DNA of 64,000 nucleotides from the NCBI GenBank assembly GCA_032718475.1, contig JAUCBJ010007955.1, positions 1 to 64,000 of the forward strand, read 5' to 3'. The stretch comes from Nemertoderma westbladi. Lineage: Eukaryota; Animalia; Xenacoelomorpha. Positions 17,491 to 46,490 of the stretch are shown here, piece after piece (the stretch's first letter is position 1; each line of letters opens with the position of its first letter). A program made the position numbers and the translations under genes. The notes under the pieces were generated by a model that saw only the letters and a list, made by a program, of their open reading frames with translations, was not told the DNA's origin and made no database searches.

Positions 17491-18100
17491 ATACCTTTCA
17501 TATTAACTTATACATTTCAGATTAACTTGATACATTTCAGATTAACTTGATACATTTCAGATTAACTTGATACATTTCAGATTAAGTTGATACATTTCTG
17601 ATTAACTTGATACATTTCAGATTAACTTGATACCTTTCAGATTAACTTGATACATTTCAGATTAACTTGATAAATTTCAGATTAACTTGATATATTTCAG
17701 ATTAAGTTGATACATTTCAGATTAACTTGATACATTTCAGATTAACTTGATACATTTCAGATTAACTTGATAAATTTCAGATTAACTTGATACAATTCAG
17801 ATTAACTTGATACTTAGCAGATTAACTTGATACTTGGCAGATTAACTTGATACTTGGCAGATTAACTTGATACTTGGCAGATTAACTTGATACATTTCAG
17901 ATTAACTTGATACATTTCAGATTAACTTGATACATTTCAGATTAACTTGATACATTTCAGATTAACTTGATACATTTCAGATTAACTTGATACACTTCAG
18001 ATTAACTTGATACTTGGCAGATTAACTTGATACCTTTCAGATTAACTTGATACATTTCAGATTAACTTGATAAATTTCTGATTAACTTGATATATTTCAG
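17491..18100. repeat. 20-bp minisatellite ATTAACTTGATACATTTCAG, left part (~30 units)
   Basis: Direct tandem array that resumes at 36718 after the LTR element. Confidence 0.97.
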
Positions 18101-18227
18101 TATAGAATTATATTCTCTAAATGCCGTGGATTTTCAAAATTTTATTTTATTCGAATTAACTTTGTAAAAGATTGCTTTGAATCCTCATTTGTATTTGTTA
18201 TATCTATTGTACGCCTATCGGTCAAGT

Positions 18228-18314
18228 GGTTCAGTAGCTCAGTCGGTAGAGCGTTGGAAATTATATGTGTAGTAGGTATTGAGTTCGAATCCTAGTAAGT
18301 GCGAATTATTTTTT
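18228..18314 (+). ncRNA. tRNA-derived Pol III cassette in the LTR (A box, B box, T-run); not a functional tRNA
   Basis: GGTTCAG-TAGCTCAGTCGGTAGAGC (D-arm/A box), GAGTTCGAATCC (B box, 18281-18292), then TTTTTT. Acceptor and anticodon stems do not pair. Confidence 0.7.
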
Positions 18315-18371
18315 GTACAGAATTTCAACTCATTTAAATTAACCGCTACAAATTAATTGCATTTGTCTGTA

Positions 18372-18643
18372 CCAATGAGACTGTAGTTATTTGATTGTAA
18401 CCAATGTCGTGCAAGTTATATATTAGCTGGACCAATAGCTATCTTTAAAACCCTGTTAGAACCTATAGAACAATCGAGAATTTTCTCGATTGATTGCGGC
18501 ACAAATTTAGTATATAAAGGTGCGATTTGTTCATTAGTTATTCACAATCTTATACTTCTCAGATTATCTTATCTTAGCAATATTCTGTCGTGCTTAGTTT
18601 ATTTCAGATTACATTGTATTATAATTATATCTTCTGTAATAAA
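18372..18643 (+). promoter_or_regulatory. Putative LTR Pol II promoter and polyadenylation signal
   Basis: CCAAT at 18372, 18401 and 18432 (~30-bp spacing), TATATAAA at 18511, AATAAA at 18638. Confidence 0.55.
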
Positions 18644-20001
18644 GTCAGAATTATCGCTAATCTGCTTTTTTCTATCTGTTTTACCATGATTCACTACGGT
18701 GAACAAAGTTAAGGACAGGATGGCCGGCTAGAAGATCGGGCCGCAGCAATGAACAGGAACATCACAGGAATGTAGACGAGAGACAACCCGCAATACCATC
18801 TTGAGTTGTTCGCCCATTGCCTGAAAGGTTAGACAGCGTTCGACATCTCGCTACCTAAGCGTAAGACCAAAAGATCAAAGGTAGAAGTAGTGGCACGCTG
18901 TGAGCCTAAAATTACATCTTAGGGACTGTACTGTCTTGATTCAGGAAAACCCACAGTAGACCTTCATATTCCTACAGGTAGAGGGAAAGAGCAGGCAGAT
19001 ACTAGTACGCAGATAGGACGTAGGCACACCGGTACGAAGCATACAAATTGGTAGGGTGCAGCAAACTGTACGCCTAACTCTTGCTAAGTGCAGGTGTGTG
19101 TGCGACTATTTGTAGTACGACAGTGTCCATTGCATTAGGACTTGTAGGCTAGGGGGGTTGCTGTGTTTTCACCTGAATTGGGATTGTACCGTTCAGGCGG
19201 TAGGGCAGTTTACAGCTAGGCGCAAATAAATTGAGGCTATTAGGGATACTAACATCTACCGTGTCCCCGCCAACGCCCTAATAGGAAGTTACCCGGACTA
19301 CCTGGGTGACTAAAATTCTAGATAGGAGCCAGGATAACTATTAGTAACTGTACGCCTACAGTAGTAAACTAACACATCTCTTCTCAGTATTAGGGACCTG
19401 GTACCTAAAAATTGCCGAATTCTGGGCGTAGCATTAACCTTATGCCTGAATTTGAGTCCTGGAAATACGCAAGAGGGGAAGGAACCTTGCTATTCGTGAG
19501 TATTGGACCTACAAGTTACAAAATTATAATATTCGTAAAATGCACACCGTACCCAGTAATTATATATGTGAAGGAGCAAAACTGTTTTTGACCGTTCAGA
19601 ATTAACACACGCGCGTTAGAAATTATTTACACCTCAAAATATATAAAATTAACTTTTGTCCGTACTGTGCTTTGCCCGCTAGTTAGACATCTCCAAATCT
19701 CTGCCTGTACCTAGCTAGCGTCTCTTCGCCCAAACCATATAAATCACACCGCGGCAAAGTGTACGAGCCCCTTAGTCCGTCAGTGAGTCAGCCTGATTTT
19801 AGGATTCGCTGCGCGGGATTTTGTTTTATCGAAGTTTGTCTGCTCGTAGACTGTTTTCTGCCTCACCGGTTATAAGAGATCAATACTGCAATATATTCGC
19901 TTACTTAGAGTTTACTGTTTTGGTGAGAAGGTCGGATTTATGATTTGATTCACAAACTTTACAGTAGGATATTGCAGGTATTGTTACCGTCTCTTCATAT
20001 A

Positions 20002-20012
20002 GTAGGAATATG
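20002..20012 (+). promoter_or_regulatory. Atypical primer-binding site GTAGGAATATG, complementary to LTR 18965-18975
   Basis: Directly abuts the 5' LTR end; lacks the TGG that would pair with a tRNA CCA; exact reverse complement of CATATTCCTAC. Confidence 0.55.
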
Positions 20013-20810
20013 TTTTACTGAACTACGGTACGGTAGGACTAAAGTTATTTGAAAATTTTGTATTTTGAGGTAAAAATTTATATTTGATTAGCTAAGTGCT
20101 AATTTTTTGAAATAAAATTTGATTTGAACCGCGTGTAATATATTTTTGGAATTGAATACCGGTGTTTAAAAGGGTTTAAATACCATATTGTACCGGTACA
20201 AAATTTTTCGTAAAGTAAAACCTAACTCTTTTGTTTTTCAGGATTCAGAACTCATTTCTAGACTGTAACGGGAGCAAGACCGTGTTTAGCAAGTTTGGGA
20301 GATAGATAACTCAACAACTTTGGTTGGGAAAATCGCGCTTCGTCCGCAACGCTGGAAACGGAAAGGTTCACGTTCGGTTTGTATCTGGGAATCTGTTTTT
20401 CTGGAGAATTATTGGAGTGGGTGAGTTCGAAAAGTTGCATAAATAAGTTAGGCATTACCGTATTAGTTAAAATTATTGTGGGTTCCACTGTCTCAAGTAT
20501 TTATGCATTCCGTATGATTTCTTTGTTCATTGCTGAATTAGTCCGTATTATTGTATTTAATTTACCTTTTGATAACGCATATCGTTATCCGATTTATTTG
20601 TTATAAAATTGGCCGCTAGGCTAATTTTATTATATACTTATTCCGTGACATTTATTTGCTGTAAAATTGGCCGTTTAGGCTAATTTTATCCATCTGCTAT
20701 AAAATCGGCCGGTAGGCTAATTTTATATGACTGTAATTAGTACCGTTTAGATATAAATTCGGTAAACTCGATACTTTGACACTCACTCTACTTGACTTAC
20801 AACTACCGAA

Positions 20811-23800
20811 ATGAGTGACAAACCAGACTATACGAAAAATACACCTACCGACTATGACTCATGCGACGGAGATAAGTCAGCAGCGGAAGAACAACAGGGG
20901 AAGACTCGCGAGCCTACCGAACCTACACCGTGTGCGTCACCAGTACATCCAACGGGAGTACCGGATGCCGTAGTACGAGGCGACGGCAGGACCGAGGACT
21001 TTCTAACTGTTCCGCAACCTAGGTATAGGGAAACGGACATGGTAAGTTCAGCAGGAAGTCAGGAAAGCGTTGTTAGGAGCGTCGGTGGATACATGGCGCA
21101 TATTACCAGGAGTATTGGAGAAGGCCAACGCATATTAGACGGGTTGACTGCTCCGATGTCTCGATTCGAGTTCTACACCCTCCAGGTTAGAGTACAGAGT
21201 AAAGTATATAAGTCCGTAGATAATCTAGTTGGCCTACAAGATCTAGCTAGACAGAGACAGGACATGGATACTCAACTTAGAATCCTCGAGAAACTAATGA
21301 TCGCTAGAGAGAAACTGATTCAGTTTAAGTCGACGATTAGACAGATACAACAGGAACAAGCGGACCAGTTGTTAGGTGAGTCAGTTTCGGACGAATTATT
21401 ACAGCCCGAGGAAGAACAGGAACTGTACCGACTGGATGGACAATTGAAACATCTGACGGACCACTTACGTATGTGCGGCGAGGATGTCGGAGATTGGGAA
21501 ACCGTGCCGGAATATACGAGGGAAACTTCACCCGTACGAATCGAATCGGCACCGGGAATACTGAATCAATCACTGGTGAGTATTCGCAGCGAGATTAACG
21601 AGGTAAGCATGGTCACGTCAGAAGTTGCTCGACAACAGCAACAGTTCTACAGACAGCAACACGAGATGGAAGAACAAACTCAACTGCTAATGATACAAAC
21701 AGCGGTAGAGGAAGAGAAAATACGTGTTGCGAATGTAGCGAGAATCTCTCATCTGCAGGAACAAGCCGAACTCGAAGCGGCCGAAATGGAAAGGTTAGAG
21801 TTGGACATTGCCCAACAAGCGGCAGCGGCCGAGTTAGCGCAACGAACGGCAACAGCCGAGTTAGAGCGACAAACGGCAGCGGCAGCGGCAGCGGCCGAGT
21901 TAGAGCGACAAACGGAAACGGCAGAGTTAGAAAGAAAAAGGTTAGTTTCAGAAGCCAGAGTCGAGATGAAGACACGGCAAATAAAAGCCCAACAAGCGAT
22001 ACGACAAGCAGAGTTCGAGGCGCAACAACAACAAACGGAACAACGAGAAAAGGAAGTTAAACTTCGTTTCGAACTTGAGAAAAGGGCGAGAGAATTAGCC
22101 GAAACCAAGGAAAATCTGGATCTTCTAGCCCGTGATCGATCGATGAGATCTCGTGACGGACATGATTTGGACCAGATAGAGGTAAGGCACCGCCAAATCC
22201 AGGAACGACTAAAGGAAGGTTCGATAGGAGCACCTGGACGGGAACGACAATTAGTAAAGGACTTATGTCAAAGATTCCCTCAAGTAACCCCTATGTTCGC
22301 ACCAGTTACAACTAAGGAATCTGTTTCGATTGCGGGTAGTAGTGATATTTCTCCTATCCATGGTGCGACGGAACACAGGTTTGTTATTCCGGACAAGTTT
22401 ACACCGCCAAGAGCAACGTCGTCGCCTATTCCGAAAGTCAAGGTAAGTAACCCACCGATTACAGATCGTAGTAGTTTGTTGACTGGACCTGCACTACTGA
22501 CGACTAAACAGGTGAGTCCACCTTTGACGCCAAAACCTGTTATACACTACGCTTACCCAATGACTTTTAGGCCAACAAGGCCTTTGGATTCAAATGCTGT
22601 CATTCGACCACGACTTCAGTTTACATCGCAATCTACGACTTCGAGGAAGACTTGTGAGCCTACCGAACAACGGAGAACAGTGGATACGCGACCGTTCAAC
22701 CAGTGTACATCGCAATCTACGACTTCGAGGAAGACTTGTGAGCCTACCGAACAACGGAGACTAGTGGATACGCGACTGTTCAACCAGTGTACATCGCAAT
22801 CTACGACTTCGAGGAAGACTTGTGAGCCTACCGAACAACGGAGATCAGTGGACGATGTTCCGAAACGGAATGTTAGAATTCGTACGACACAACGGACGCG
22901 AGCACGTCGACCACCATATCCAGATGATAGTAGTACTTCGAGCGAATCGGATTACCCGAAACGCGAGGTATTTAGAACAGGGGCGGCCGATGAATATAAA
23001 CGTGAGCGTTCAGACAACTCCTTTGCAGACAATCCTCCACAGAATACACCAACACAGAAGGCGTTACAACCAACGGACGCAATCAGTACACAACAGTTCG
23101 CCGACATCCTGCGACCAGTTGTTAACAAGTTGGCTCAGATTGAGGAGCGTCTGGAGGAAGTTCAAACCGACAGTTCGAGGAACACTGAGTTCGAACACAA
23201 TAGACACCCGAAGGAACCACAAAGACCGGTACCTTCAAAAAACACATCGTATCAGGGAAAAGCGCCAAGAAGGGATATCAACCAGTGTACCAACCAAGGA
23301 CGCGAAACTCTGAACGTTGCCGAGGAGATAGCGAAATTCGCAGCGAGACAAGGATTGCCGGTACAACAACCACCGAAGTTTTCTGGTAGTTCAAAACACT
23401 GGCACACATTCGTAGACTATATTGAATCTCAGATCGCCGTGTGCGCCTTTACATCACGGGAGAAGTTTAATTACCTGCTTCAAACGTTGTCAGGAGAACC
23501 TAAACGTTTGGCAGAGACCTTCGTTGGTGTACCGGACGCCTTCGAACTAGCGTACGATCGTTTAACTTCGATATACGGAGGTACAGTCAGTATGGCCAGG
23601 TCAGTAATAGAGGAACTCTGTAAGGGAGGGGCTATCACTAAACCCGTCGACTTATTAAAACTGGCCGACGAGATAAAGAACGCTATCACTACTTTAAGAT
23701 CCATTGGACAACTTGACTACGGGAATACCCCTACAGTCCTATTAAAGATCATAGGACGACTCCACCATCGACTTCGTCGGGAGTGGAGAAAGATCGAATA

Positions 23801-26800
23801 CCAGCGAGAAGAGCGGGGTGGATTCTTAAAACTGGAGGATGTGTACCTTTTGATATCCAGGGAAGCAGTTGTAGAGACTCGATCTAACTACACTGACCAG
23901 CACATCGTGGCAGAAGGAATCACATTGCCATCCTCCAACCGACAAAAACCCCAGACAACATCCACTAAGACGGCCACTTACACCACACCGACGGAATCAC
24001 GACAATTCTCGGACGGTAGTAGGGTATCTGCGCCCATTGGAACAAAACAGACGAGACAACAACTCAGTACCGACTTCAGCGGCTGCCAATACTGCGAGCA
24101 TTTAGGCAAGCGGTATATCGGTCACAAGTTACGAGGTTGTCGACAATTTCGCGAGTTGAACTCAGAAGAACGACGGCTGCAAATACGGCCATTGGACTCT
24201 TGTTGGCGGTGTACGCAACACGGACACGTCCGTAAAGATTGCCCAAATACCGACACTTGTCCATCCTGTGGACGCAACCACGACGGTCTGCTCCACACAG
24301 ACAGCCACACACCGACAAAACGCTTCGCCAGGGAACACCCGGAAGCAGCAGCGAGATGTGATGCAGCCTACAGAAAACGAGAATCGAAAACGACTCCGAC
24401 CTTCGTGACCCATATTGAGGATTGCTTCTCTGAACAACCCGGATCGTCGGACGAAGAGTCAGAAGACGACGACGTATATTCGGATGGAGATGAACAGCCA
24501 TCGATCGCGCTTCTGACTACTGACCAACTGAAGGGATTCAGTGTAATTCCGATTAAGATTACTGGCACAAAGTGGAGTAAGAGAATCTACGCTATTCTAG
24601 ATTCAGCCTCATCTCACAGTTACGTGGATGAAAAGATAGCTGACGTCGTGACGGATCTCAGACAAGGTAAGCGTGTCAGTTATACCGTAAGTAGTATGCA
24701 CGGACAGCGTGCAATACCAGTGACACGAGTCAAGTTAAACTTAGACTCTCTTCTTCCGAAATCGCAACACAGCGAGAGGGAGAGGTCTTTGTTACCCTTC
24801 AAGGATTTGACCTTTGCGGCCACAAAAGACTTTAGTAACCTACTAGGTCCGGTCCCAGAACAATCCTTGGAGGACCGTAAGTATTTCAGACACCTTGGTG
24901 TACCTGAATGTCCTGTCAATTATAGATCGGTAGCCATGCTGATCGGGACGGACCAATTCAACCTACATCAAGTGTGGGAAACCAGACCATCGGCAGTCGT
25001 AGCGGGAAACGCATACGCCTGTAGAATGCCGATAGGGTGGTATACTCGAGCGCCTGTGCGCACACTAGACGTAAGTGACGAGGAAGACGATGTACGAAGT
25101 ACATGTAGTTTATTAACTACAAATTCAATCCATTCCTTTTCACGCGACGTGGACCATACTACCTTACAGACAAAACATAACAGACATGTAACTAGTATGA
25201 TAAGTCACAAGGAGCAGCTAACCCACCAGGTGAGTTTAGAACTTGGGGAGAAGACGAGTCAGCTAGAGATTCCATCGACGACAGATGATAACGCCGGAAG
25301 GCTTGCGAGTCTACCTACCCCAACAACCTCAACAATGCCCGTCGAGATCGATGATGACGCGTTGAGAAATCACCAATTGGAACAAGCTGTATTGGACAAA
25401 GAATTAACGGAGAAGACTATCAGGTGGTTAGAACAAGATACAGCTGAACCTGGTAGCTACGAACCTTGTATGTCGGAACAAGAGAAACAATCTTTGAGGA
25501 TCATGGAAGATACTATCCGCCAGACGAAAGACGGACATTATGAGGTAGGGATGTTATGGCGTAGCCAAAGTCCTAAACTCATAAATAACTATCCACTGGC
25601 TCTAAGACGTCTACACTCAATACGGCAACGTCTATTAAAGGACGAGAAAGCCCATCTGCAGTACAACACTCAGATGGAGACGTATTTGACTAAGGGATAC
25701 GCTATCCGAATGACTAACCCGGAGATAGTGACTGACCAAACATATTACTTGCCACATCACTTTGTGAGACACCCCGACAAACCAGACAAAGTACATGTAG
25801 TCAATGACTGTGCGGCTCTGTTTGAGGGAATGTCCCTCAATAGCGAGTTGATGGATGGACCAAACATGAATAATTATCTTATGGGGGTGATTATGCGCTT
25901 CCGTCAGCGTCAAGTAGCTTTTACTTGTGACGTTGAAGCGATGTTTCACCAAGTGAGAGCGTTAGAGCGAGACAGAGACAGTTTGCGGTTCCTCTGGTAC
26001 CCAGAAGGAGACTTAAGTCTACCACCGGCGACTTACCAAATGCAAGTTCGCGTTTTCGGTGCCAGGGACAGCCCAAACTGCACGATGTACGCCCTAAAAC
26101 AAGCCGCTAGGGATCAGAAACACCTGTATGACCCAGAGATAATTAGGATTGTGGAACGTGACTTTTACGTCGACGACGGATTACAGAGTTGCGACACAGT
26201 AGAACGTGCTACAACAGTAGCACATCAATTACGGGACTGCTTAGCGGGCGGAGGTTTTAACCTCACCAAATTCGCCTCAAACAGTGCCGAATTAGTAGAC
26301 TCATTCGGAACGACTGAGCGTGGAGGTGGTGACATAGACCTAGAGTTCGAACCACTACCGACGACCAAGGTGTTGGGGCTCTTTTGGGACCCAAACACGG
26401 ACAACTTTCGAGTGAAAGTGAGACTGGACAGTCAAGAAAACACACTGACAAAGAGATCATGCTTGTCAAAATTGAGCCGATTGTTCGATCCATTAGGATT
26501 CATCAGTCCAATAATACTGCAAGCCCGCATTTATATGCGCAGTATTTGGAAGGATGGACTGACATGGGACGAGCCGATCTCATCAGACCAAGTGGACTTA
26601 TGGAAGACCTGGGAGGCGGAATTATCTTCGCTAGAGGATTATTCCATACCCAGAGTCTACTTTCCATTACAAACAACATTTCCTGACAACTTGGAATTAC
26701 ATTGTTTTTCTGACGCCAGTGACAACGGTTTTGGTGTGGCAGCGTACTTGCGCAGACAAGTAGACTCAGCAGAATTCGATGTTTCGCTCATTACTTCTAA

Positions 26801-29570
26801 GGCAAAAACAATGCCTACTAAGTATATGACGACACCACGAGCTGAGCTACAAGCCGCAACCCTGTCAACCACCATCGTGAACCTCATACAGACAGAACTA
26901 CAGTCAAGTTTACAGATATTTTATTGGACTGACGCGACGTTGGTTTTATTTTACATAAACAACGACACACTTGAATTCAAGACATTCGTAGCTAACCGTC
27001 GCGCAGAAATTCTAGACCGTTCAATAAAAGAGGATTGGCGACATTGTCCCGGACCACAAAACCCAGCTGATATTGCGTCGCGAGGAATGATGCCTGAGGA
27101 ATTCTGTAAACCGGAAAACAAAGAATTTTGGCAACACGGGCCCCAATTCTTGCAGAAATCGACACAAGATTGGCCTCCGTTATACGACAACAAGTCTAAC
27201 ACTATCCCTAAGGACGCCGAAATCAAGAAACCAAAAAAGGGGAAGGCAAAGAAAAGGACGACGGCGGCAAAACTCAAGAAAAAACCGAAGGCGAAATGGA
27301 AAGATATAACTTCAAAGGTCAAGAGAGGAAGACTTGCGAGCCTTTCTACACCAGACATATCGCCAGACGGTCAACCAGACACGTTACTAGACGGTCAACC
27401 AGACGTTTTGCCAGACATATCACAAAATGTTCTACCAGACACTAGTAACATATTGACAAACAGTAAAGCCGCAGTTTCCCTATTGGAGCAGCCTTCTATT
27501 GACAAACAACCAGATACGTTACCAGACGTATCGCCAGACACATTACTAGACAGTCGACTAGACATTTTGTCAGAAACATCACAAAATGTTCTACCGGACA
27601 TTAGTAATGTATCGACTAACAGTAAAGCCGCAGTTTCCCTATTGGAGCGGCCTTGTATTGACAAACTACCAATTTTGACACACTTGAGCAACCATAAGCA
27701 CGGTGAAACCTCATGTATTACAGATGTGGGTAGTACCTACGCTAATGTAAATACAGGTGTTACTCTGCGCTCAAGAGACATACCAAACTTGCAACCTATG
27801 GTGAGACCTGGGATTAATGTCGGCAGAAAATTAAGTTTACCGAAACCCAGTGACCCCATAGAGTTCAAACCACCATTAACGATCGACTTACAAAGTACTG
27901 ACAATCAAGGTAAGAAGACGAAGAAGGACAAATTACTTGTAGACCCGGACGGATCAACAGTCAACAAGGGAATACCTACCGGCGGACCCGTGGGCCCTTC
28001 TAGTAATTCAAAACCTTCCAAAATCTCCATTGACTTACCTGATGACGTCACAAATACTCACGTCGACCGGATTATAAACTTAACAGACTCTTGGTCAAAC
28101 GCTTGCCGAAAGTTAGCGTGGATTGTACGTTTTGTACAATACGTTAAAGGCAAACGCGACTTTACACGTCGACTTACATTGGCTGAGATTGACAGGTGTG
28201 AGATTAAATTAATTCGCCATTACCCACTGCGATATTTCGCGCGCGAATTCACATCCATAAATCAAGGTCAACCAATCAAGTCGTCACCAATACTGAGTTG
28301 GAGTCCGATTATTTATAATGGCTTAATTTGTCATAAATCTCGGCTTCAAAACATTGACTTTAACACAAACTTTAGGTACCCAATAATAATACCGCAACAT
28401 CACGAACTACAACGTGCAATGATACTGGACGCACATTTACATCTGAAACACGCTGGAAGACATCACTGTCTTTCCTACTTACGTACAAGATTTGTATTAA
28501 TTAGACCCAGTAAAGCGTTAAGTTCAGTGACACGTACGTGTATTATTTGTAAAAAGGTACATTCTAGAATAGGTACCCAAGAAATGAGTGAACTTCCACA
28601 AGCACGACTTCAAGCATTCAGACCACCTTTTACAGAGACTGGAATTGATTGCTTTGGTCCCATACATACGAAACGTGGACGTATACTAGTAAAACGCTGG
28701 GGACTGATTTTCATATGTATGTCCAGTAGGGCAGTTCATATTGAACGTGTGATGGATCTTTCCACCAACGCGTTTATACTAGCACTGCGGCGATTTATCG
28801 CTAGACGCGGACTAGTGAAATGCTTGTACTCAGACCAAGGGACAAACTTTGTTGGTGCTCGGAATGAGATTGCTAGAGCCTTTAAGAAATTAGATCATGA
28901 TCAAATCTCGAACGAACTACAACCTCACAAGATTGTTTGGAAGTTTAATCCTCCGGATAGTCCTTGGAGGGGCGGAGTCTGGGAGAGATTGATTAGATCT
29001 ATCAAAACGGCAATGGCAAAGGTCATTCCAGTAAACCACATACTGACAGACGACCAACTGACAACACTGTTTGTTGAAATCGAGGCAATACTAAATACTA
29101 GACCAATAGTATTAGTACCCGATGACAAACAATCTCAGTTTGCTTTGACACCGGCGCACCTGCTTATGCAGGCACCGACCACATTGACACCTATTTCTAT
29201 TCCAATAGAAAGCGACAGCTACGGTAGAAAAGCGTGGAAAATCACGCAACTACTGGCTAACAAATTCTGGGAAATATGGCAAAACCATTATTTGCCCTCT
29301 ATTTCTGCCAGAACAACATGGTACAATAACACCCGCGCATTAAAGCCGGGAGATCACGTGCTGTTAGCGGAAGTGAATCTAAAAAGACGCTTCTGGATAA
29401 CAGGTGTAATTTTAGCCACACATCCATCTATGGATGGAGTGACAAGAACTGTGACGGTACGGACAATTGACGGTCGTACAGTAGACAGACCGACTCAACG
29501 TCTCGTACTTCTTGAAGAGACTCGTAATGAGTCTGGAGACTACAAATCTCCACCTAATACTAGTAAATAA
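20811..29570 (+). CDS. BEL/Pao gag-pol polyprotein, 2919 aa
   Basis: Coiled-coil N-terminus; PPKFSG..W..F gag motif (~23370); three Cys/His knuckles (~24083-24296); protease ILDSAS (~24595); RT YLPHH...FYVDD (~26166); Pao RNase H FSDAS...PRAELQAA...WTDA (~26709); integrase H..H/CxxC and IDCFGP...SDQGTNF...GGVWERLI. Confidence 0.95.
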   Translation: MSDKPDYTKNTPTDYDSCDGDKSAAEEQQGKTREPTEPTPCASPVHPTGVPDAVVRGDGRTEDFLTVPQPRYRETDMVSSAGSQESVVRSVGGYMAHITRSIGEGQRILDGLTAPMSRFEFYTLQVRVQSKVYKSVDNLVGLQDLARQRQDMDTQLRILEKLMIAREKLIQFKSTIRQIQQEQADQLLGESVSDELLQPEEEQELYRLDGQLKHLTDHLRMCGEDVGDWETVPEYTRETSPVRIESAPGILNQSLVSIRSEINEVSMVTSEVARQQQQFYRQQHEMEEQTQLLMIQTAVEEEKIRVANVARISHLQEQAELEAAEMERLELDIAQQAAAAELAQRTATAELERQTAAAAAAAELERQTETAELERKRLVSEARVEMKTRQIKAQQAIRQAEFEAQQQQTEQREKEVKLRFELEKRARELAETKENLDLLARDRSMRSRDGHDLDQIEVRHRQIQERLKEGSIGAPGRERQLVKDLCQRFPQVTPMFAPVTTKESVSIAGSSDISPIHGATEHRFVIPDKFTPPRATSSPIPKVKVSNPPITDRSSLLTGPALLTTKQVSPPLTPKPVIHYAYPMTFRPTRPLDSNAVIRPRLQFTSQSTTSRKTCEPTEQRRTVDTRPFNQCTSQSTTSRKTCEPTEQRRLVDTRLFNQCTSQSTTSRKTCEPTEQRRSVDDVPKRNVRIRTTQRTRARRPPYPDDSSTSSESDYPKREVFRTGAADEYKRERSDNSFADNPPQNTPTQKALQPTDAISTQQFADILRPVVNKLAQIEERLEEVQTDSSRNTEFEHNRHPKEPQRPVPSKNTSYQGKAPRRDINQCTNQGRETLNVAEEIAKFAARQGLPVQQPPKFSGSSKHWHTFVDYIESQIAVCAFTSREKFNYLLQTLSGEPKRLAETFVGVPDAFELAYDRLTSIYGGTVSMARSVIEELCKGGAITKPVDLLKLADEIKNAITTLRSIGQLDYGNTPTVLLKIIGRLHHRLRREWRKIEYQREERGGFLKLEDVYLLISREAVVETRSNYTDQHIVAEGITLPSSNRQKPQTTSTKTATYTTPTESRQFSDGSRVSAPIGTKQTRQQLSTDFSGCQYCEHLGKRYIGHKLRGCRQFRELNSEERRLQIRPLDSCWRCTQHGHVRKDCPNTDTCPSCGRNHDGLLHTDSHTPTKRFAREHPEAAARCDAAYRKRESKTTPTFVTHIEDCFSEQPGSSDEESEDDDVYSDGDEQPSIALLTTDQLKGFSVIPIKITGTKWSKRIYAILDSASSHSYVDEKIADVVTDLRQGKRVSYTVSSMHGQRAIPVTRVKLNLDSLLPKSQHSERERSLLPFKDLTFAATKDFSNLLGPVPEQSLEDRKYFRHLGVPECPVNYRSVAMLIGTDQFNLHQVWETRPSAVVAGNAYACRMPIGWYTRAPVRTLDVSDEEDDVRSTCSLLTTNSIHSFSRDVDHTTLQTKHNRHVTSMISHKEQLTHQVSLELGEKTSQLEIPSTTDDNAGRLASLPTPTTSTMPVEIDDDALRNHQLEQAVLDKELTEKTIRWLEQDTAEPGSYEPCMSEQEKQSLRIMEDTIRQTKDGHYEVGMLWRSQSPKLINNYPLALRRLHSIRQRLLKDEKAHLQYNTQMETYLTKGYAIRMTNPEIVTDQTYYLPHHFVRHPDKPDKVHVVNDCAALFEGMSLNSELMDGPNMNNYLMGVIMRFRQRQVAFTCDVEAMFHQVRALERDRDSLRFLWYPEGDLSLPPATYQMQVRVFGARDSPNCTMYALKQAARDQKHLYDPEIIRIVERDFYVDDGLQSCDTVERATTVAHQLRDCLAGGGFNLTKFASNSAELVDSFGTTERGGGDIDLEFEPLPTTKVLGLFWDPNTDNFRVKVRLDSQENTLTKRSCLSKLSRLFDPLGFISPIILQARIYMRSIWKDGLTWDEPISSDQVDLWKTWEAELSSLEDYSIPRVYFPLQTTFPDNLELHCFSDASDNGFGVAAYLRRQVDSAEFDVSLITSKAKTMPTKYMTTPRAELQAATLSTTIVNLIQTELQSSLQIFYWTDATLVLFYINNDTLEFKTFVANRRAEILDRSIKEDWRHCPGPQNPADIASRGMMPEEFCKPENKEFWQHGPQFLQKSTQDWPPLYDNKSNTIPKDAEIKKPKKGKAKKRTTAAKLKKKPKAKWKDITSKVKRGRLASLSTPDISPDGQPDTLLDGQPDVLPDISQNVLPDTSNILTNSKAAVSLLEQPSIDKQPDTLPDVSPDTLLDSRLDILSETSQNVLPDISNVSTNSKAAVSLLERPCIDKLPILTHLSNHKHGETSCITDVGSTYANVNTGVTLRSRDIPNLQPMVRPGINVGRKLSLPKPSDPIEFKPPLTIDLQSTDNQGKKTKKDKLLVDPDGSTVNKGIPTGGPVGPSSNSKPSKISIDLPDDVTNTHVDRIINLTDSWSNACRKLAWIVRFVQYVKGKRDFTRRLTLAEIDRCEIKLIRHYPLRYFAREFTSINQGQPIKSSPILSWSPIIYNGLICHKSRLQNIDFNTNFRYPIIIPQHHELQRAMILDAHLHLKHAGRHHCLSYLRTRFVLIRPSKALSSVTRTCIICKKVHSRIGTQEMSELPQARLQAFRPPFTETGIDCFGPIHTKRGRILVKRWGLIFICMSSRAVHIERVMDLSTNAFILALRRFIARRGLVKCLYSDQGTNFVGARNEIARAFKKLDHDQISNELQPHKIVWKFNPPDSPWRGGVWERLIRSIKTAMAKVIPVNHILTDDQLTTLFVEIEAILNTRPIVLVPDDKQSQFALTPAHLLMQAPTTLTPISIPIESDSYGRKAWKITQLLANKFWEIWQNHYLPSISARTTWYNNTRALKPGDHVLLAEVNLKRRFWITGVILATHPSMDGVTRTVTVRTIDGRTVDRPTQRLVLLEETRNESGDYKSPPNTSK
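22620..22855 (+). repeat. 84-bp in-frame tandem repeat (x3) inside gag
   Basis: TSQSTTSRKTCEPTEQRR repeated three times. Confidence 0.9.
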
Positions 29571-30234
29571 TTAGGAGTTTACAAATAGATTTCCACGTAC
29601 CTGTACACTGTAGTAAGGACAGCGGTAGAATTCCATTGTCTTTATATGTGAACATTGAGGGTAGTACCCTTATGTGTCACATAGGAGCAGGATTTGTAGG
29701 TATAAGAAATGGAATTCTACTTGGAACTCACAATATTGAGACATTTTCGAAAATTTAGACAATCCATTTGGATTTGAAAATTTTTTAAAAAATTTTCTCC
29801 AGTGAATAGATTTCAGGGTACAGTCGGGTGGAACTTAAAATTAGAGAAACAAGAGAGGAAGACTTGCGAGCCTTTCTTAAAATTTTAATTAAATTTTACA
29901 CAGTCTTGTTTCAATAAGTTACGTCAATAAATAGACTCCCCTATATTTATTTACTAATTCTTGACTGCTTATTTTCTGATAATAGTTTGGGATCAAAAAG
30001 TGAGTATTTTAGACTCACGGCCAGTTTAGCCCAAATTCGTTTTTATTTCGGCAAAAAATTTTAGATAAGAAGCAGCGTGTCATTAAAGAAACCCTAGATC
30101 TTAGGCTATGGGTAGGAGGTTAGAGCGTTGTCGAGCCCAAAGGGCAGACGAAACTCTCACGTCTCCTCACAACTAACTACAAACTCTGTTGTATTCCCTC
30201 TAGTAGTAATGATTATGTAACTACACCCCTAATT

Positions 30235-33200
30235 ATGGAGAAAGGGATACAAGGAGAGCCGAGATGGGGATATGATATCCAAGAGGAGGCAGCAGCGCCA
30301 TTCGAAAGATTTGGAGCCAAGGACTATACTATATTCGGTATAAAAGAATTATCGGAAAGTACAGCGAAACTCGCGAGAACTAAATATGACTCGAACGTAT
30401 TAAAGAGAAGACAAAATGCATTAAACGAAAGAATCGAAAGTTTGCGCAAAACCTTCAACGAACTTTACCCGTACGACGCTTTGTGTGATACGGGAGACAT
30501 TAGCGAAGACCCCGATACTGAAATTAGTCGTTTGTATCATACCATGCAATACCTAAAGGCGCACGAACCTATGCCCGCGGTAAGAGATGAATTTGATGGA
30601 ATGCATCTTTACAGACGAACTCGAGGGGACGATAGAGAAACCAAGGAAGCATTTTCAGTTTATAAACTTTATTATCAATGCGGTTCTTGTATGCGCGAAC
30701 AACGAAATGCGATTCCGATGCGTTTGAATAAGGAAAATCCCGAACCGATATTGGCGAGGTGTTCGAATCATCAACAACTACGCTACCAGGAAGGAGGGTA
30801 TCCTTTATCGAATCCATATCATTCATTTGCTATGACCGGACCAAAGGCGGGAGAAACTGTCATTTACCCATCTAAGGTTGTTGAACCCGATGTATTCGAA
30901 CTTACGCTGGACGAGGCAAATCAGTCAACCCGCGAAAAGAAAGAAGCTCTTAGCCTATACAGAGCCTACAAGGCTTTCGAGAAAGGTGAGATGGAAGAAT
31001 GGGGTGGAAGACTCGCGAGCCTACCTTGCCATTGGACGTCACACGATCAAACTTCAGCTAAGGAGATGACACCGGAAGTTTTCGAGAGCATAAACTTTGC
31101 TCAAAACGTTATTCAGAGACTACAGATTGCATCCCCGGAGAGGACAAGAGAAATGCAACCGTATAGTACTTCAACTACGAAACCATTGAGTACGACACTC
31201 AACTTTCCTATTAGTATACCAGTCCGACAGGATACAACGTACGAAATACCCATCGTGGATCATCCAGAAATCATTTCAAACTTGGAGTTTCTTCCTGCAG
31301 TTGTTTTTAGCGATATGAGTAAGATATATGATTTACGTAGACATATTACTCAAAAGGTCGTGTACAACGTTCCACCTCATATTCAAGACTTTAAGGAACT
31401 GGATAGAGCTGGTGCCGATATAGCTCCGAGTAATCTGAAAGGATATCTAACCAAGACGATTCGTTTATGGATTGGAACCGGAACCTTCGAGTCGGATACA
31501 GATATTGCCGCGGATTGGCGAGGTAAGGTTATTCGTTTCGAAGATGATAAGGATATAGAGAAGATTTGGCAACCTTCGGAAGAATTGTTGGATGAATGGA
31601 ATAGAACGTTTAGATCGTTTCAGGAAAACGGTTACATGTTTTACGACAACGAGGGCGGCAGTCATCAGCAGAGTTTGACTTCTAAGACTATACAGATTAG
31701 AGCGGCGGACGGAGTCCTGCACGTTTTCAGTAGACAGAGGAGCGACAAACGAATGCCGATACCTCCAGCGAATACAAGGCGACACCATCTTATCACCGAC
31801 ATAGTAAAGAAGATGGACCAAGCTTGTAATATCGACGCTAGAATGCTACCGAAGATGGTAAGAAACATGATTTTAGATAAAACTGTTGTAAAGATTGGAT
31901 CAGGAGTAAGGGAGGACTTAATTAGCGACTTCGCCGGCATGACGGACAGCGATGACCGACTACCGACACCTTACGTCGACACTCGACCTCTTATTTTGTG
32001 GTCTATAGAACAGGGATATTTTCGTGAGTACAATACTCAGAAGACTGGAACTGGATACATTTCCTACCTGTTATTCAATTGGGATTATAAGGAAAATAAG
32101 AGAAACAAGTATATTGAAACTTATGGAGAAGGTGATACTCCAGATATGAGTGAGTTTGAATCACAGCTTAAATGGAGAGGATGCGTGTATTGGGCTATTA
32201 CGTCACCTCCAAGAGCGGTCTTACAATATTATTTAGCAATAGAGTCGTCAGTAAATGTTTGCCTAATCGCCGACATTGTGTCTCGGACTCTCAAAAGACA
32301 TCCACTTTGTCTCGGAGAAGATCATACGTTCTACATGGAAGGGAGAATTCGTACCGACGTGTTTAGACGATTCCTTGAACCCTTCTACAACTCCGACGCT
32401 CAGTGTAATGCCTTTACTCGAGCAGGATTTAGTATATTTCGAGACGTGTATCTTCGCTGTGCGGGATCTCTTATCGAAAGACCATCTATGTTTACATTGT
32501 TACCCTATGAAGGAGAACGTATCGTGGAGATTACGGAAGAATCACGGCAGACGCGCGCGCCTATCGGTCACCTCGGTGATGATTTCGAAGTAACTACTAC
32601 GATCGCTGACGATCCTTTAGAGGAACTTCTTGAGATAGAAAGGAACCTCCCGAAGAAATCTCAGACGGAGATTCGACAACTTGAAGCAACAGATGCTATA
32701 GTTTGTATACAACCTTCAGAAACCTACCAACCCATAGACCCAGATGATTACGATTATAGTATGGGAGGAAGCGCTCGACCGATTGGAGATCTTATATACG
32801 AACGAGTGTGGTACCCTGCCAATACGATGTGTAGTAAATGTGGCGTCGCTGGACATCATATGACGAAGTGCAGTGGAAAGCACATTACTACGACTCAGCT
32901 AATCTGTGGATGGTGTGGGGATCAAGGGTCTCATACCTTTTATACTTGCTGGAGATTTATGGCTCAATGTACTTATTGCAATATAAAAGGACATCGAGCA
33001 TCTGAATGCCAACTAAGAGACATACCTTATGAACACGAATCTGTAAAACTCGTGAGGAAGTTATTTGATGAGTGGGAAGATTTAGCCGACGAACATGTAT
33101 CGGCACAAAGAAGACGGTTTCCGATGAGAGCGCATCTCGGATTTTGGGCGGTAAATCCTCAAACGATGATGTCGGAAGGATATATCTCCGCTATGCCCCA

Positions 33201-33960
33201 ATATGACGAACTTATCGAGGTTGTCGATATTTTGCCCCACGACAGTGGATTCCGAGTGGTGCGCGAGTATCTACTACAGATTCACCCGGATAACAAAAAC
33301 ACGTGGAATTTTCAGAAAGTCGTTAACCGCATTACGTATGGTGAATTCGATCGTTTCCGAACTGAAAAACGGAATAAAGGAGCTTGGTTAACCGTCGCAT
33401 GGGCGTACCGAGCCGCGTTTTACCACAAACGTATACGAGCGAGCGTATTCGAGGAAGAGGAGGTCCTAGAGGCGACGAATATACCAGCCACTCCGGTTGC
33501 GCCGTCTGCACGTCACCCTCGGGAGGACGGGCAGGGTAGGATCATACGGGTCCAGAAAGTGGGCCAACAATTAAAGAAAATTATTAATATAGAAGAACGC
33601 AAGGGAGTTGAGCCGACCATTCGAGTTACTCGGGATACGTCATCGCTTCCAAGAGAACCAGTAGGAGGATCGGGACATACACCAGCTGATCAACAGGGGG
33701 CGCAAGCTACTCTTGGGTCTGCGTCGTCCGCCTTTCGCGCGTTCCCAGACGTTCTACCAACTGTAGTGACAACTGATCGGTCACGAGGAATCGGTCGAGG
33801 TTTTGGGATGCCAAATAGACGAATTTGCGAGGAAATAGTCGCACTGTCTCTCAACGTCCCAAGTAAACCAGTGACTCGCCCCATTAGTCCCATATCGCGA
33901 GCAAAGTCACCTGTGCGCAGTTTTCGAGGACGCGGCAGGGCTCGATCCACTAAGCGATAA
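30235..33960 (+). CDS. Extra retrotransposon ORF, 1241 aa: DEDDy (WRN/EXD/RNase D-like) 3'-5' exonuclease-like domain plus zinc knuckles
   Basis: ExoI FYDNEG..TIQI; LPKMVRNMILDKTVVKIGSGVREDL (ExoII); YVDT; ExoIII-like W...VLQYYLAIE; knuckles CSKCGVAGHHMTKC, CGWCGDQGSHTFYTC, CTYCNIKGHRASEC. The uninterrupted ORF lies between pol and the 3' LTR. Confidence 0.8.
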   Translation: MEKGIQGEPRWGYDIQEEAAAPFERFGAKDYTIFGIKELSESTAKLARTKYDSNVLKRRQNALNERIESLRKTFNELYPYDALCDTGDISEDPDTEISRLYHTMQYLKAHEPMPAVRDEFDGMHLYRRTRGDDRETKEAFSVYKLYYQCGSCMREQRNAIPMRLNKENPEPILARCSNHQQLRYQEGGYPLSNPYHSFAMTGPKAGETVIYPSKVVEPDVFELTLDEANQSTREKKEALSLYRAYKAFEKGEMEEWGGRLASLPCHWTSHDQTSAKEMTPEVFESINFAQNVIQRLQIASPERTREMQPYSTSTTKPLSTTLNFPISIPVRQDTTYEIPIVDHPEIISNLEFLPAVVFSDMSKIYDLRRHITQKVVYNVPPHIQDFKELDRAGADIAPSNLKGYLTKTIRLWIGTGTFESDTDIAADWRGKVIRFEDDKDIEKIWQPSEELLDEWNRTFRSFQENGYMFYDNEGGSHQQSLTSKTIQIRAADGVLHVFSRQRSDKRMPIPPANTRRHHLITDIVKKMDQACNIDARMLPKMVRNMILDKTVVKIGSGVREDLISDFAGMTDSDDRLPTPYVDTRPLILWSIEQGYFREYNTQKTGTGYISYLLFNWDYKENKRNKYIETYGEGDTPDMSEFESQLKWRGCVYWAITSPPRAVLQYYLAIESSVNVCLIADIVSRTLKRHPLCLGEDHTFYMEGRIRTDVFRRFLEPFYNSDAQCNAFTRAGFSIFRDVYLRCAGSLIERPSMFTLLPYEGERIVEITEESRQTRAPIGHLGDDFEVTTTIADDPLEELLEIERNLPKKSQTEIRQLEATDAIVCIQPSETYQPIDPDDYDYSMGGSARPIGDLIYERVWYPANTMCSKCGVAGHHMTKCSGKHITTTQLICGWCGDQGSHTFYTCWRFMAQCTYCNIKGHRASECQLRDIPYEHESVKLVRKLFDEWEDLADEHVSAQRRRFPMRAHLGFWAVNPQTMMSEGYISAMPQYDELIEVVDILPHDSGFRVVREYLLQIHPDNKNTWNFQKVVNRITYGEFDRFRTEKRNKGAWLTVAWAYRAAFYHKRIRASVFEEEEVLEATNIPATPVAPSARHPREDGQGRIIRVQKVGQQLKKIINIEERKGVEPTIRVTRDTSSLPREPVGGSGHTPADQQGAQATLGSASSAFRAFPDVLPTVVTTDRSRGIGRGFGMPNRRICEEIVALSLNVPSKPVTRPISPISRAKSPVRSFRGRGRARSTKR

Positions 33961-34019
33961 AAGGGAGGGCAAGGGTGGACGGAAGACTCGTGAGCCTTTC
34001 TTATGATTTTGTGATTTAT

Positions 34020-34600
34020 TTGAATTTATATTTATATTTGTGTTTATTCCGAACTTAAGCAATTTGTATTGTTCCGAATTTATGAAATTTAGAAATAAGA
34101 ACTCATATTTAGTAAGATTTATAGTTAGTAAGAATTTATATTTGCAAGATTTATATTTTGTAAGAATTTATATTTTATATTTGTGATTATTCCGAACTTA
34201 TGCAATTTATATTATTCCGAACTTATGTAATTTATATTGTTCCGAATATTATGCAATTTACATTTTATAGGCAGTATTACAGTGAAACAGAAAGTAAGAG
34301 TAGATGGAAGACTCGTGGGCCTTTCTTATAGTTTTATTTGTAAAATGTTATATTTTGTATTTAGAAAGTTTTATAGTCAGAAAGTTTGTGCTTAGAAAGA
34401 CTCATTTTTGTAATTATTCCAAACTTATGCAATCTACATTTAGGTACGAAAGTATTTGTAATTACTTGAATTTATGCAATATTTGAGATGCAATAGTAGA
34501 TGGAAGACTCGTGAGCCTTTCTTATTGTTTTCATTTATTTGTATTTGTAATTGTTTGAATTTATGCAATATTGAGATGCAATAGATTTATATTGGTGAAT
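34020..34600 (+). repeat. AT-rich 3' UTR repeats (TTATTCCGAACTTATGCAATTTATATT-like)
   Basis: Six or more degenerate copies between the ORF2 stop and the 3' LTR. Confidence 0.7.
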
Positions 34601-34816
34601 TTAATTTAGATTTATATTGTACTTACTTAGTAAAGCCTTAAATACGTAAAGTTTGAATTTGTAATTATTTTGTATCGAATCATTACGTAGAAAGGAAGTA
34701 TTATTTGAAATTTAATTGTAAATATGTAAGTACGCCCTAAGTATCCTATAGTTTGATTGATTATTGGTGAAAACCGTATATTTTATGCACGATAATATCC
34801 TGTTTTCATGGAGCGG

Positions 34817-36717
34817 TATAGAATTATATTCTCTAAATGCCGTGGATTTTCAAAATTTTATTTTATTCGAATTAACTTTGTAAAAGATTGCTTTGAATCC
34901 TCATTTGTATTTGTTATATCTATTGTACGCCTATCGGTCAAGTGGTTCAGTAGCTCAGTCGGTAGAGCGTTGGAAATTATATGTGTAGTAGGTATTGAGT
35001 TCGAATCCTAGTAAGTGCGAATTATTTTTTGTACAGAATTTCAACTCATTTAAATTAACCGCTACAAATTAATTGCATTTGTCTGTACCAATGAGACTGT
35101 AGTTATTTGATTGTAACCAATGTCGTGCAAGTTATATATTAGCTGGACCAATAGCTATCTTTAAAACCCTGTTAGAACCTATAGAACAATCGAGAATTTT
35201 CTCGATTGATTGCGGCACAAATTTAGTATATAAAGGTGCGATTTGTTCATTAGTTATTCACAATCTTATACTTCTCAGATTATCTTATCTTAGCAATATT
35301 CTGTCGTGCTTAGTTTATTTCAGATTACATTGTATTATAATTATATCTTCTGTAATAAAGTCAGAATTATCGCTAATCTGCTTTTTTCTATCTGTTTTAC
35401 CATGATTCACTACGGTGAACAAAGTTAAGGACAGGATGGCCGGCTAGAAGATCGGGCCGCAGCAATGAACGGGAACATCACAGGAATGTAGACGAGAGAC
35501 AACCCGCAATACCATCTTGAGTTGTTCGCCCATCGCCTGAAAGGTTAGACAGCGTTCGACATCTCGCTACCTAAGCGTAAGACCAAAAGATCAAAGGTAG
35601 AAGTAGTGGCACGCTGTGAGCCTAAAATTACATCTTAGGGACTGTACTGTCTTGATTCAGGAAAACCCACAGTAGACCTTCATATTCCTACGGGTAGAGG
35701 GAAAGAGCAGGCAGATACTAGTACGCAGATAGGACGTAGGCACACCGGTACGAAGCATACAAATTGGTAGGGTGCAGCAAACTGTACGCCTAACTCTTGC
35801 TAAGTGCAGGTGTGTGTGCGACTATTTGTAGTACGACAGTGTCCATTGCATTAGGACTTGTAGGCTAGGGGGGTTGCTGTGTTTTCACCTGAATTGGGAT
35901 TGTACCGTTCAGGCGGTAGGGCAGTTTACAGCTAGGCGCAAATAAATTGAGGCTATTAGGGATACTAACATCTACCGTGTCCCCGCCAACGCCCTAATAG
36001 GAAGTTACCCGGACTACCTGGGTGACTAAAATTCTAGATAGGAGCCAAGATAGCTATTAGTAACTGTACGCCTACAGTAGTAAACTAACACATCTCTTCT
36101 CAGTATTAGGGACCTGGTACCTAAAAATTGCCGAATTCTGGGCGTAGCATTAACCTTATGCCTGAATTTGAGTCCTGGAAATACGCAAGAGGGGAAGGAA
36201 CCTTGCTATTCGTGAGTATTGGACCTACAAGTTACAAAATTATAATATTCGTAAAATGCACACCGTACCCAGTAATTATATATGTGAAGGAGCAAAACTG
36301 TTTTTGACCGTTCAGAATTAACACACGCGCGTTAGAAATTATTTACACCTCAAAATATATAAAATTAACTTTTGTCCGTACTGTGCTTTGCCCGCTAGTT
36401 AGACATCTCCAAATCTCTGCCTGTACCTAGCTAGCGTCTCTTCGCCCAAACCATATAAATCACACCGCGGCAAAGTGTACGAGCCCCTTAGTCCGTCAGT
36501 GAGTCAGCCTGATTTTAGGATTCGCTGCGCGGGATTTTGTTTTATCGAAGTTTGTCTGCTCGTAGACTGTTTTCTGCCTCACCGGTTATAAGAGATCAAT
36601 ACTGCAATATATTCGCTTACTTAAAGTTTACTGTTTTGGTGAGAAGGTCGGATTTATGATTTGATTCACAAACTTTACAGTAGGATATTGCAGGTATTGT
36701 TACCGTCTCTTCATATA
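34817..36717 (+). repeat. 3' LTR (1901 bp)
   Basis: Copy of 18101-20001, preceded by a short purine-rich GGAGCGG (possible PPT) and followed by TSD TTCAG. Includes a tRNA-like cassette at 34944-35030. Confidence 0.95.
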
Positions 36718-37230
36718 TTCAGATTAAGTTGATACATTTCAGATTAACTTGATACATTTCAGATTAACTTGATACATTTCAGATTAACTTGATAAATTTC
36801 AGATTAACTTGATACAATTCAGATTAACTTGATACTTGGCAGATTAACTTGATACTTGACAGATTAACTTGATACATTTCAGATTAACTTGATACATTTC
36901 AGATTAAGTTGATACATTTATGATTAACTTGATACATTTCAGATTAACTTGATACATTTATGATTAACTTGATACATTTCAGATTAACTTGATACATTTC
37001 AGATTAACTTGATACATTTCAGATTAACTTGATACATTTCAGATTAAGTTGATACATTTATGATTAACTTGATACATTTCAGATTAACTTGATACATTTC
37101 TGATTAACTTGATACATTTCAGATTAACTTGATACATTTCAGATTAACTTGATACATTTCAGATTAACTTGATACACTTCAGATTAACGTGATACATTTC
37201 AGATTAACTTGATATTTTTCAGATTAACTT
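36718..37230. repeat. 20-bp minisatellite, right part (~25 units), running into the exon's splice acceptor
   Basis: Same unit as 17491-18100. Confidence 0.97.
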
Positions 37231-42427: not shown

Positions 42428-42830
42428 CTTATTAAATGAAAACTATATTACTGTACAGTAAGTATATCGTTGGATTTGGGTACTTATTAAATTAACACTA
42501 TACATACTTACACCGTAGTACAGTATATCGTTGTATTTGGGTACTTATTAAATTAACACTATGCTTTCACAGTATATCGTTGTGTTAGGGTACTTATTAA
42601 ATGAACTCTATACTTCAGTAGTAGTATATCGTTGTGTTAGGGTACTTATTAAATGAACTCTATACTTCAGTAGTAGTATATCGTTGTGTTAGGGTACTTA
42701 TTAAATGAACACTATATTACTGTACGTACAGTAAGTATATCGTTGGATTTGGGTACTTATTAAATTAACACTATACTTACACAGTATATCGTTGGGTTTG
42801 CGTACTTATTAAATGAACACTATGTTTATA
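42428..42830. repeat. ~50-bp minisatellite, right part
   Basis: Same unit as 39275-40807. Confidence 0.92.
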
Positions 42831-46290: not shown

Positions 46291-46490
46291 AGATGTACCG
46301 TATAAACAGTACTCGAATGTCACTCTTCCAGATGTACCGTATATACAGTACACGAAGGTCACTCTTCCAGATGTACCGTATGTACAGTACACGAAGATCA
46401 CTCTTCCACATGTACCGTATATACAGTACACGAAGGTCACTCTTCCAGTTGTAACGTATATACAGTACACGAAGATGTACCGTATATATA
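46291..46490. repeat. 39-bp minisatellite, continuation
   Basis: Same unit as 43450-45679. Confidence 0.9.

Follow-up and report, generated by a model that had tools for sequence, protein, structure and literature searches.

In the Tf1 and Tf2 retrotransposons, a self-primer within the RNA's R region pairs with the PBS (primer-binding site) and is cleaved off by the reverse transcriptase (RT), with RNase H implicated in the cut (excerpts of PMC5341516 and PMC4600332). For cleavage of this type the primer must be close to where the RNA begins, with the poly(A) site downstream of it. Self-priming is listed for the Tf1/sushi lineage and the plant lineages Tcn1 and TAR (excerpt of PMC6317226). 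For BEL/Pao elements, the Belpaoviridae of the International Committee on Taxonomy of Viruses (ICTV), the description gives an 18-nt PBS for tRNA-Arg or tRNA-Gly, long terminal repeats (LTRs) of 0.2-1.2 kb and genomes of 4.2-10 kb, and states that replication is poorly understood, with host-tRNA priming assumed (PMC8742986). Here we analyzed a 64,000-nt stretch of DNA from the xenacoelomorph Nemertoderma westbladi (contig JAUCBJ010007955.1, positions 1 to 64,000; hereafter the window), in which an 18.6-kb BEL/Pao element carries a PBS complementary to its own LTR. The same arrangement recurs among its relatives, and the best reading of these sequences is that Tf1-like self-priming is a trait of a wide BEL/Pao group.

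The element is an intact, likely young copy, with the following parts at the center of this analysis:

18101-36717, + strand: whole BEL/Pao element, 18.6 kb, intact
18101-20001, + strand: 5' LTR, 1,901 bp, TA..TA
34817-36717, + strand: 3' LTR, 1,901 bp, 99.7% identical to the 5' LTR
18954-18975, + strand: candidate self-primer, an exactly matching 11-mer (18965-18975) extended by 7 bp, one of them G-U, past a 4x1 loop
20002-20012, + strand: predicted non-tRNA PBS, beginning at the first base after the 5' LTR
20811-29570, + strand: open reading frame (ORF) 1, BEL/Pao-type gag-pol, 2,919 aa, open, with Pfam domains
30235-33960, + strand: ORF2, 1,241 aa, open, predicted RNase D/WRN-type 3'-5' exonuclease

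A preliminary description of this DNA had reported an intact 18.6-kb element with 1.9-kb LTRs and TA..TA ends, and the coordinates agree: the LTR pair differs by six substitutions and no indels over 1,901 bp, both ORFs are open, and both LTRs have TA at each end. It had also stated that a TGG-type PBS is missing, and directly 3' of the 5' LTR we found neither TGG nor a tRNA-Arg/Gly PBS of the ICTV type. The reported complementarity between the PBS position and the element's own LTR proved exact over 11 nt at offset 0, as 20002-20012 is the reverse complement of 18965-18975 (LTR nt 865-875) and of 35681-35691 in the 3' LTR. Self-primers have been defined as at least 10 nt that begin 0-5 nt after the 5' LTR and are complementary to the LTR (excerpt of PMC6317226), a definition that this 11-nt match fits. 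When the start was fixed, an 11-nt match occurred at 12 of 14,785 internal positions (0.08%) and at 6 of 2,302 non-coding positions (0.26%). The extended pairing has an energy of -21.6 kcal/mol, a value that 6 of 300 windows of non-coding sequence, 25 of 300 internal ones and 1 of 300 shuffled sequences also attained. An initiator-like CA at 18965-18966 forms the 5' end of the 11-mer, and in RNA folded from 18960, nine of the 11 pairs of the helix had a probability near 1. Other primer designs were ruled out for this element: a tRNA-like cassette in the LTR, since the only 11-nt PBS complements in the element are those at 18965 and 35681; a longer primer built by an intron, as no split match of at least 8 nt was present; and a conserved splice site directly after the 11-mer, as the 5' and 3' LTRs have different bases at the following position.

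To test whether the traits of this element are linked, 88 BEL/Pao loci were fetched by RT alignment, 79 from metagenomes (35 of 64 parts; best 80 of 538 matches) and nine from contigs of metagenome-assembled genomes (MAGs). The latter, L080-L088, are BEL/Pao elements, some with both LTRs, on bacterial MAG contigs, and likely reflect contamination from animal hosts. Of 21 candidates with a possible LTR end that were inspected, 18 were kept, whereas L035, L036 and L067 lacked a clean end; the remaining 67 loci did not enter this test. None of the 18 relatives with readable LTR ends has TGG in the first 8 nt after the LTR. A first pass over 3' LTRs found a 10-15-nt PBS complement in 14 of 17 relatives (13 split, one contiguous) and none in three, two of which, L031 and L047, do hold the complement in their 5' LTRs. 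Dropping the near-duplicates L024, L047 and L063 and adding L026 gave a set of 15 relatives. Within this set, 14 have an own-LTR complement of at least 10 nt (10-15 nt), split by a GT-AG intron in 12 and contiguous in two. By comparison, 15 of 240 cross pairs between a PBS and another element's LTR reached at least 10 nt, including eight within two groups of near-identical PBSs and two against the long LTR of the element studied here. This difference supports the self-priming half of the preliminary proposal, more strongly than the preliminary description was able to. The introns that split the primers are 67-511 nt long, with GTRAG-type donors and pyrimidine-YAG acceptors, and were seen in the LTRs of these loci:

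Intron-split loci (LTRs): L004, L010, L017, L019, L024, L026, L027, L045, L047, L057, L059, L063, L084, L085, L086

The PBS letters vary between families of relatives, a variation that priming by a host tRNA would not permit. In 13 of the 15 relatives, a poly(A) hexamer is found 0-124 nt downstream of the primer; here the distance is +249. A CA lies at most 2 nt from the primer 5' end in 10 of 14 elements including this one, against 2.8 expected, in a count whose window was picked after seeing the data, which left out L084 and L086 and in which some families are related. A TATA box was also seen about 30 nt before the primer start of L026. Taken together, a wide animal BEL/Pao group is quite likely to be self-primed by LTR RNA, mostly by way of an intron spliced out of the LTR. 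The split relatives pose a puzzle, as the intron would have to be removed to form the primer and still be retained when the LTR is copied.

For the N. westbladi element itself, we favor Tf1-like priming of the minus strand in cis by the element's own 11-nt LTR RNA, with the 3'-OH made by RT RNase H, at a probability of roughly 0.6. The transcript would start at or near the 11-mer, at the CA of 18965-18966, and its 5' end would fold onto the PBS. RT RNase H would then cut after the 11-mer to give the priming 3'-OH, as in Tf1, and strong-stop DNA would copy the LTR back to the cut before transfer to a 3' end polyadenylated downstream of the AATAAA at 19225. The LTR signals that bear on this geometry are:

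18372-18518, + strand: candidate upstream RNA polymerase (Pol) II promoter, with CCAAT boxes (three) and TATA (18511; LTR nt 411)
18638-18643, + strand: AATAAA upstream of the self-primer, LTR nt 538
19225-19230, + strand: AATAAA downstream of the self-primer, LTR nt 1125, +249 nt, fitting Tf1-like geometry

Several observations weigh against this reading. The CCAAT and TATA boxes, a strong candidate promoter, and the AATAAA at nt 538 argue that the RNA begins some 425 nt upstream of the 11-mer and that its poly(A) site is upstream too, and if both lie upstream the cis-cleavage geometry is broken. In RNA folded from 18540 or 18900, the 11-bp helix had a probability of 0 and 0.03, and a local hairpin was possible at the PBS. 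In a looser search that permitted offsets of 0-5 and an intron, 4 of 150 random starts reached the match, and when foreign PBSs were compared to the 1.9-kb LTR, 2 of 15 reached at least 10 nt and 1 of 15 reached 11. Among the relatives, L081 has an own-LTR complement of only 8 nt, and the relatives are only ~40% identical to this element in RT-RNase H. Placement of the element is weak: it forms a long branch beside the L029/L031 family, where the primer is likewise contiguous (FastTree 0.85-0.88), and IQ-TREE on 25 sequences gave UFBoot values of 54 and 47 on the next nodes, in trees with no tRNA-primed outgroup and no reference sequences of named BEL/Pao lineages (BEL, Pao, Sinbad, Suzu, Tas, Dan, Flow). 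Ten loci whose best match was short, including L059, L081 and L085, were excluded from the first tree. Finally, structure predictions for ORF2 were poor (predicted local distance difference test values of 30 and 37) and a fold search returned no usable match, leaving its fold unconfirmed.

The preliminary description had proposed that the unusual features of this element may be one mechanism, to be checked by whether long LTRs, LTR-PBS complementarity and an exonuclease ORF co-occur among RT relatives. The 15 relatives instead have LTRs of 326-863 bp with TG starts and CA or TA ends. Only 58-469 nt separate the end of their last ORF from the 3' LTR, which leaves no room for ORF2. An exonuclease profile matched none of the 88 loci, and the same profile recovered held-out homologues at E values of 4.8e-14 and 0.008; RT scans of viral contigs found no related loci. 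Since the self-priming signature occurs in short-LTR, TG-start relatives that lack ORF2, it needs no ORF2, long LTR or TA..TA ends. The traits are thus unlinked in one direction, the signature occurring without the others, an outcome that the preliminary description had itself named as a refutation, and the data do not support one mechanism for all of them. The best reading treats ORF2, the long LTR and the TA ends as separate features.

Priming could also occur in trans, with the 11-mer supplied by a second genomic RNA or by a short LTR transcript from the TATA promoter, its 3' end made by RNase H or a host nuclease and ORF2 unneeded. Given the TATA box at nt 411 and the AATAAA at nt 538, the 11-mer would fall within a long U5, a position at which cleavage in cis would remove R, and the 7-bp extension upstream of the 11-mer requires an RNA that starts further 5'. 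A spliced donor acting on an unspliced template would also explain how the intron survives reverse transcription in the split relatives. The poly(A) signals just 3' of the primer and the CA at its 5' end, in the proportions given above, have the geometry expected of priming in cis, and against trans priming the analysis also counts the folding predictions, in which long RNAs that begin upstream do not adopt the helix in cis. On balance, we consider priming in trans unlikely. A different possibility is that the 11-nt match is due to chance or to a structural helix, and that the true primer is a host RNA such as a tRNA fragment or other small RNA. The loose-search chance of a match in so long an LTR, from 4/150 to 1/15, leaves room for this, and two precedents fit it, as the ICTV account has belpaovirids primed by tRNA-Arg/Gly and half-tRNA primers without TGG occur in Copia lineages (excerpt of PMC6317226). 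The match begins exactly at the LTR border, where the chance per fixed start is 0.08-0.26%, and relatives as a rule carry own-LTR complements whose letters change from one to the next, making a host primer quite unlikely.

The preliminary description had offered its own route to the 3'-OH, in which RNA derived from the LTR, or the stretch of genomic RNA that holds the 3' LTR, pairs with the PBS and has its unpaired tail trimmed by the ORF2 exonuclease. This model gains from the acidic residues at all four catalytic positions in three of three aligned proteins, from an exonuclease-plus-knuckle layout that is that of an RNA trimmer, and from the location of the 11-mer deep in the LTR and in both LTR copies; the lineage could have adopted a new way of finishing its primer. 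Against it, 14 of 15 relatives carry the signature and lack ORF2, indicating that the lineage primes without this protein, and an 11-bp helix would be a weak stop for trimming at least 250 nt. Similar exonuclease ORFs occur as the DEDDy ORF3 of bdelloid rotifer Juno/Vesta LTR elements (Gypsy-type) and Athena/Terminon elements (excerpt of PMC5408684) and in Dada DNA transposons (excerpt of PMC3706591), which points to shared accessory genes, and the available parts of these papers give no link to priming. A role for ORF2 as primer-maker is therefore not supported, and we regard the trimming model as very unlikely. Equally improbable as a whole is the composite claim of a self-primed group with mostly spliced primers in which this intron-less, long-LTR member trims its primer with a captured exonuclease-knuckle protein. 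Cis priming with RNase H cleavage thus remains our preferred reading for this element.

ORF2 is probably an unrelated accessory gene, a separate passenger whose features are as follows:

31639-32244, + strand: exonuclease motifs in ORF2
32830-33009, + strand: three CCHC-type knuckles in ORF2

From its sequence, ORF2 is a probable nuclease of the RNase D/WRN type. The DEDDy motifs and CCHC knuckles noted in the preliminary description were recovered in part: the ExoI DxE, the ExoII D and the three knuckles are present, and ExoIII reads YxxxE, with E for D, so that the catalytic set is D471/E473/D561/E670. A full HMMER scan with ORF2 returned four matches, two true (P0122 and P0124) and two to the knuckles only. 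Both true matches have the whole ORF2 layout of exonuclease motifs, three knuckles and a C-terminal motif. ExoI DxE and ExoII D are kept in three of three aligned proteins; ExoIII is YxxxE in ORF2 and P0124 and YxxxD in P0122. Atlas features for ORF2 gave PF01612 at 0.92 and a Euglenozoa cluster of PF01612 with zf-CCHC at 0.87, and no Pfam exonuclease domain, PF01612 included, reached threshold in ORF2. Profile searches of the PDB gave weak matches to EXD2 (E 0.044), WRN (E 0.15) and, for the knuckle part, 7C45 (E 0.03), which we take to be trypanosome RNase D. Word-index searches with ORF2 gave no match, and scans of viral and metagenome contigs found no ORF2 loci. A CxxC...CxxH cluster in the N-terminal part (30672-30780) is a possible further zinc site. 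Most likely, ORF2 would bind RNA via its knuckles and trim RNA 3' ends at another step, and candidate roles include countering host small-RNA silencing or processing element RNA.

Assignment of the element to BEL/Pao rests on its enzymes, encoded by ORF1 in the order protease, RT, RNase H, integrase:

24594-24614, + strand: protease motif in ORF1
26166-26177, + strand: RT YVDD in ORF1
26703-26720, + strand: RNase H motif in ORF1
28641-28991, + strand: integrase motifs in ORF1

Pfam domains in ORF1 are PF03564, PF05380 and PF18701 together with an integrase zinc finger. Among the best 120 of 907 matches to RT-RNase H, all are BEL/Pao polyproteins with 38-44% identity, and the named ones are nearly all from marine invertebrates. 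Domains and relatives are thus of BEL/Pao and not of the Ty3/Gypsy type that defines the Tf1/sushi clade, and the ICTV description of the PBS does not fit this group. ORF1 also contains in-frame tandem repeats, one of 84 bp x 2.8 in gag (22617-22852), each unit of which holds a copy of a 20-nt motif, and one of 159 bp x 1.9 (27375-27671) that lies between the RNase H and integrase regions.

That 20-nt motif and several further signals lie in the LTRs, the leader and the internal region:

20899-34521, + strand: 11 copies of a 20-nt imperfect-dyad motif, starting at 20899, 22645, 22729, 22813, 25296, 27327, 29857, 31006, 33981, 34306 and 34502
18228-18314 (3' LTR copy 34944-35030), + strand: degenerate tRNA-like cassette with an A box (18235-18246), a B-box-like motif (18283-18292) and a T6 run
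19874-19995, + strand: long hairpin at the LTR 3' end, adjoining the PBS, z -3.7 to -4.6
20223-20241, + strand: leader signals, namely a CTAAC that resembles a branch point and a strong splice-acceptor-like site, from sequence
34810-34816, + strand: short purine-rich tract at the polypurine-tract position, from sequence

The 20-nt motif occurs at 11 plus-strand places inside the element versus 0 expected, in both ORFs (in different frames) and in non-coding parts and never in the LTRs; three copies belong to the one 84-bp repeat. What had been called a recurring hairpin recurs as a sequence, and its consensus barely folds, at only -0.6 kcal/mol. None of the 88 related loci contains the 20-mer and viral contigs hold no exact match to it; it is likely a candidate protein-binding or packaging motif. 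For the tRNA-like cassette, A- and B-box-like motifs and a D-arm were present as described, while neither ARAGORN nor Rfam called a tRNA gene there and the cassette folds like its shuffles (z 0.0). It is located in U3, and its possible identities include a unit transcribed by Pol III, a site for TFIIIC and the head of an old short interspersed element. Neither the cassette nor the 20-mer showed a link to the PBS. The U5 hairpin was ruled out as a group trait, with z from -0.9 to +1.4 in the 15 relatives. Donor- and acceptor-like sites were seen before ORF2, at 30000 and 30203-30206, and together with the leader acceptor they make spliced mRNAs without the PBS possible.

The insertion has a 5-bp target-site duplication (TSD), a feature of integrase-type insertion, and breaks a 20-bp satellite array:

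18096-18100, + strand: left TSD, TTCAG, in the 20-bp satellite
36718-36722, + strand: right TSD, TTCAG, 5 bp, matching the left copy

Surroundings are rich in satellites, with 20-, 52-, 68- and 39-bp arrays at 17491-18100, 36718-37230, 39301-46474 and 50558-56606. Upstream, 14115-17159 holds an intact non-LTR retrotransposon ORF of 1,014 aa with endonuclease and RT domains, and 661-969 and 5897-6204 form an inverted repeat pair of ~310 bp that is 94-97% alike. Public sequencing runs (one organism, three studies) contain many variant copies of the element; among the 40 of 191 copy variants listed none falls in the 11-mer, a count that is no evidence. Over 18101-18690, summed contig depth in run X4, which is not copy number, was 11,000-39,000 in the first 390 nt of the LTR and at most 4,200 beyond nt 486, and some X4 contigs have the stretch around the upstream AATAAA replaced. 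This pattern suggests a composite LTR with a variable middle.

If self-priming extends across many BEL/Pao families, mostly with spliced primers, it would correct the tRNA assumption of the ICTV account and mean that self-priming arose independently outside Gypsy and Copia. Fragments of tRNAs silence LTR elements (excerpt of PMC7472051), and self-priming would remove the target that they use. LTR finders that demand a tRNA PBS or TG..CA ends would miss such elements, and the copy described here, intact and likely young, makes a predicted accessory exonuclease in BEL/Pao accessible to testing. Searching by title and abstract start, with most subscription journals outside the search, we found no paper on a self-primed or splice-primed BEL/Pao element or on a BEL/Pao exonuclease. 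Nematode Cer elements reportedly carry an exonuclease ORF or a self-encoded tRNA primer, for which we found no supporting text.

The element is thus related in different ways to several known systems. It shares with Belpaoviridae a single gag-pol ORF, the enzyme order, the three Pfam families and the 5-bp TSD, and departs from their profile in having no tRNA PBS, a 1.9-kb LTR, a length of 18.6 kb and an enzymatic second ORF in the env position. Such an LTR is unusual for BEL/Pao without being a record; the term giant used for it earlier holds relative to the ICTV range of 0.2-1.2 kb and not relative to published BEL/Pao LTRs, which have a median of 383 and a maximum of 2,427 bp (excerpt of PMC3118150). 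TA..TA is among the listed non-canonical LTR end motifs (excerpt of PMC8220671). ORF2 resembles the rotifer ORF3 in that both are RNase D-like, lie downstream of pol, show a variant catalytic set and have predicted activity; the rotifer hosts are Gypsy-type with 159-551-bp TG..CA LTRs and a DEED set, whereas this host is BEL/Pao with D-E-D-E, three knuckles and 1,241 aa, a likeness drawn from the published description. To RNase D, WRN, EXD2 and euglenozoan exonuclease-CCHC proteins ORF2 matches weakly, differing at the ExoIII residue. Compared to Tf1, Tf2, Tj1 and the Tf1/sushi, Tcn1 and TAR lineages, the enzymes here are of BEL/Pao, so the proposed working would be Tf1-like in an element that is not a Tf1 member. 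Unlike Tf1, it has a second promoter and poly(A) signal upstream, its primer is only a candidate for the RNA 5' end, and in most of its relatives the primer is split by an intron.

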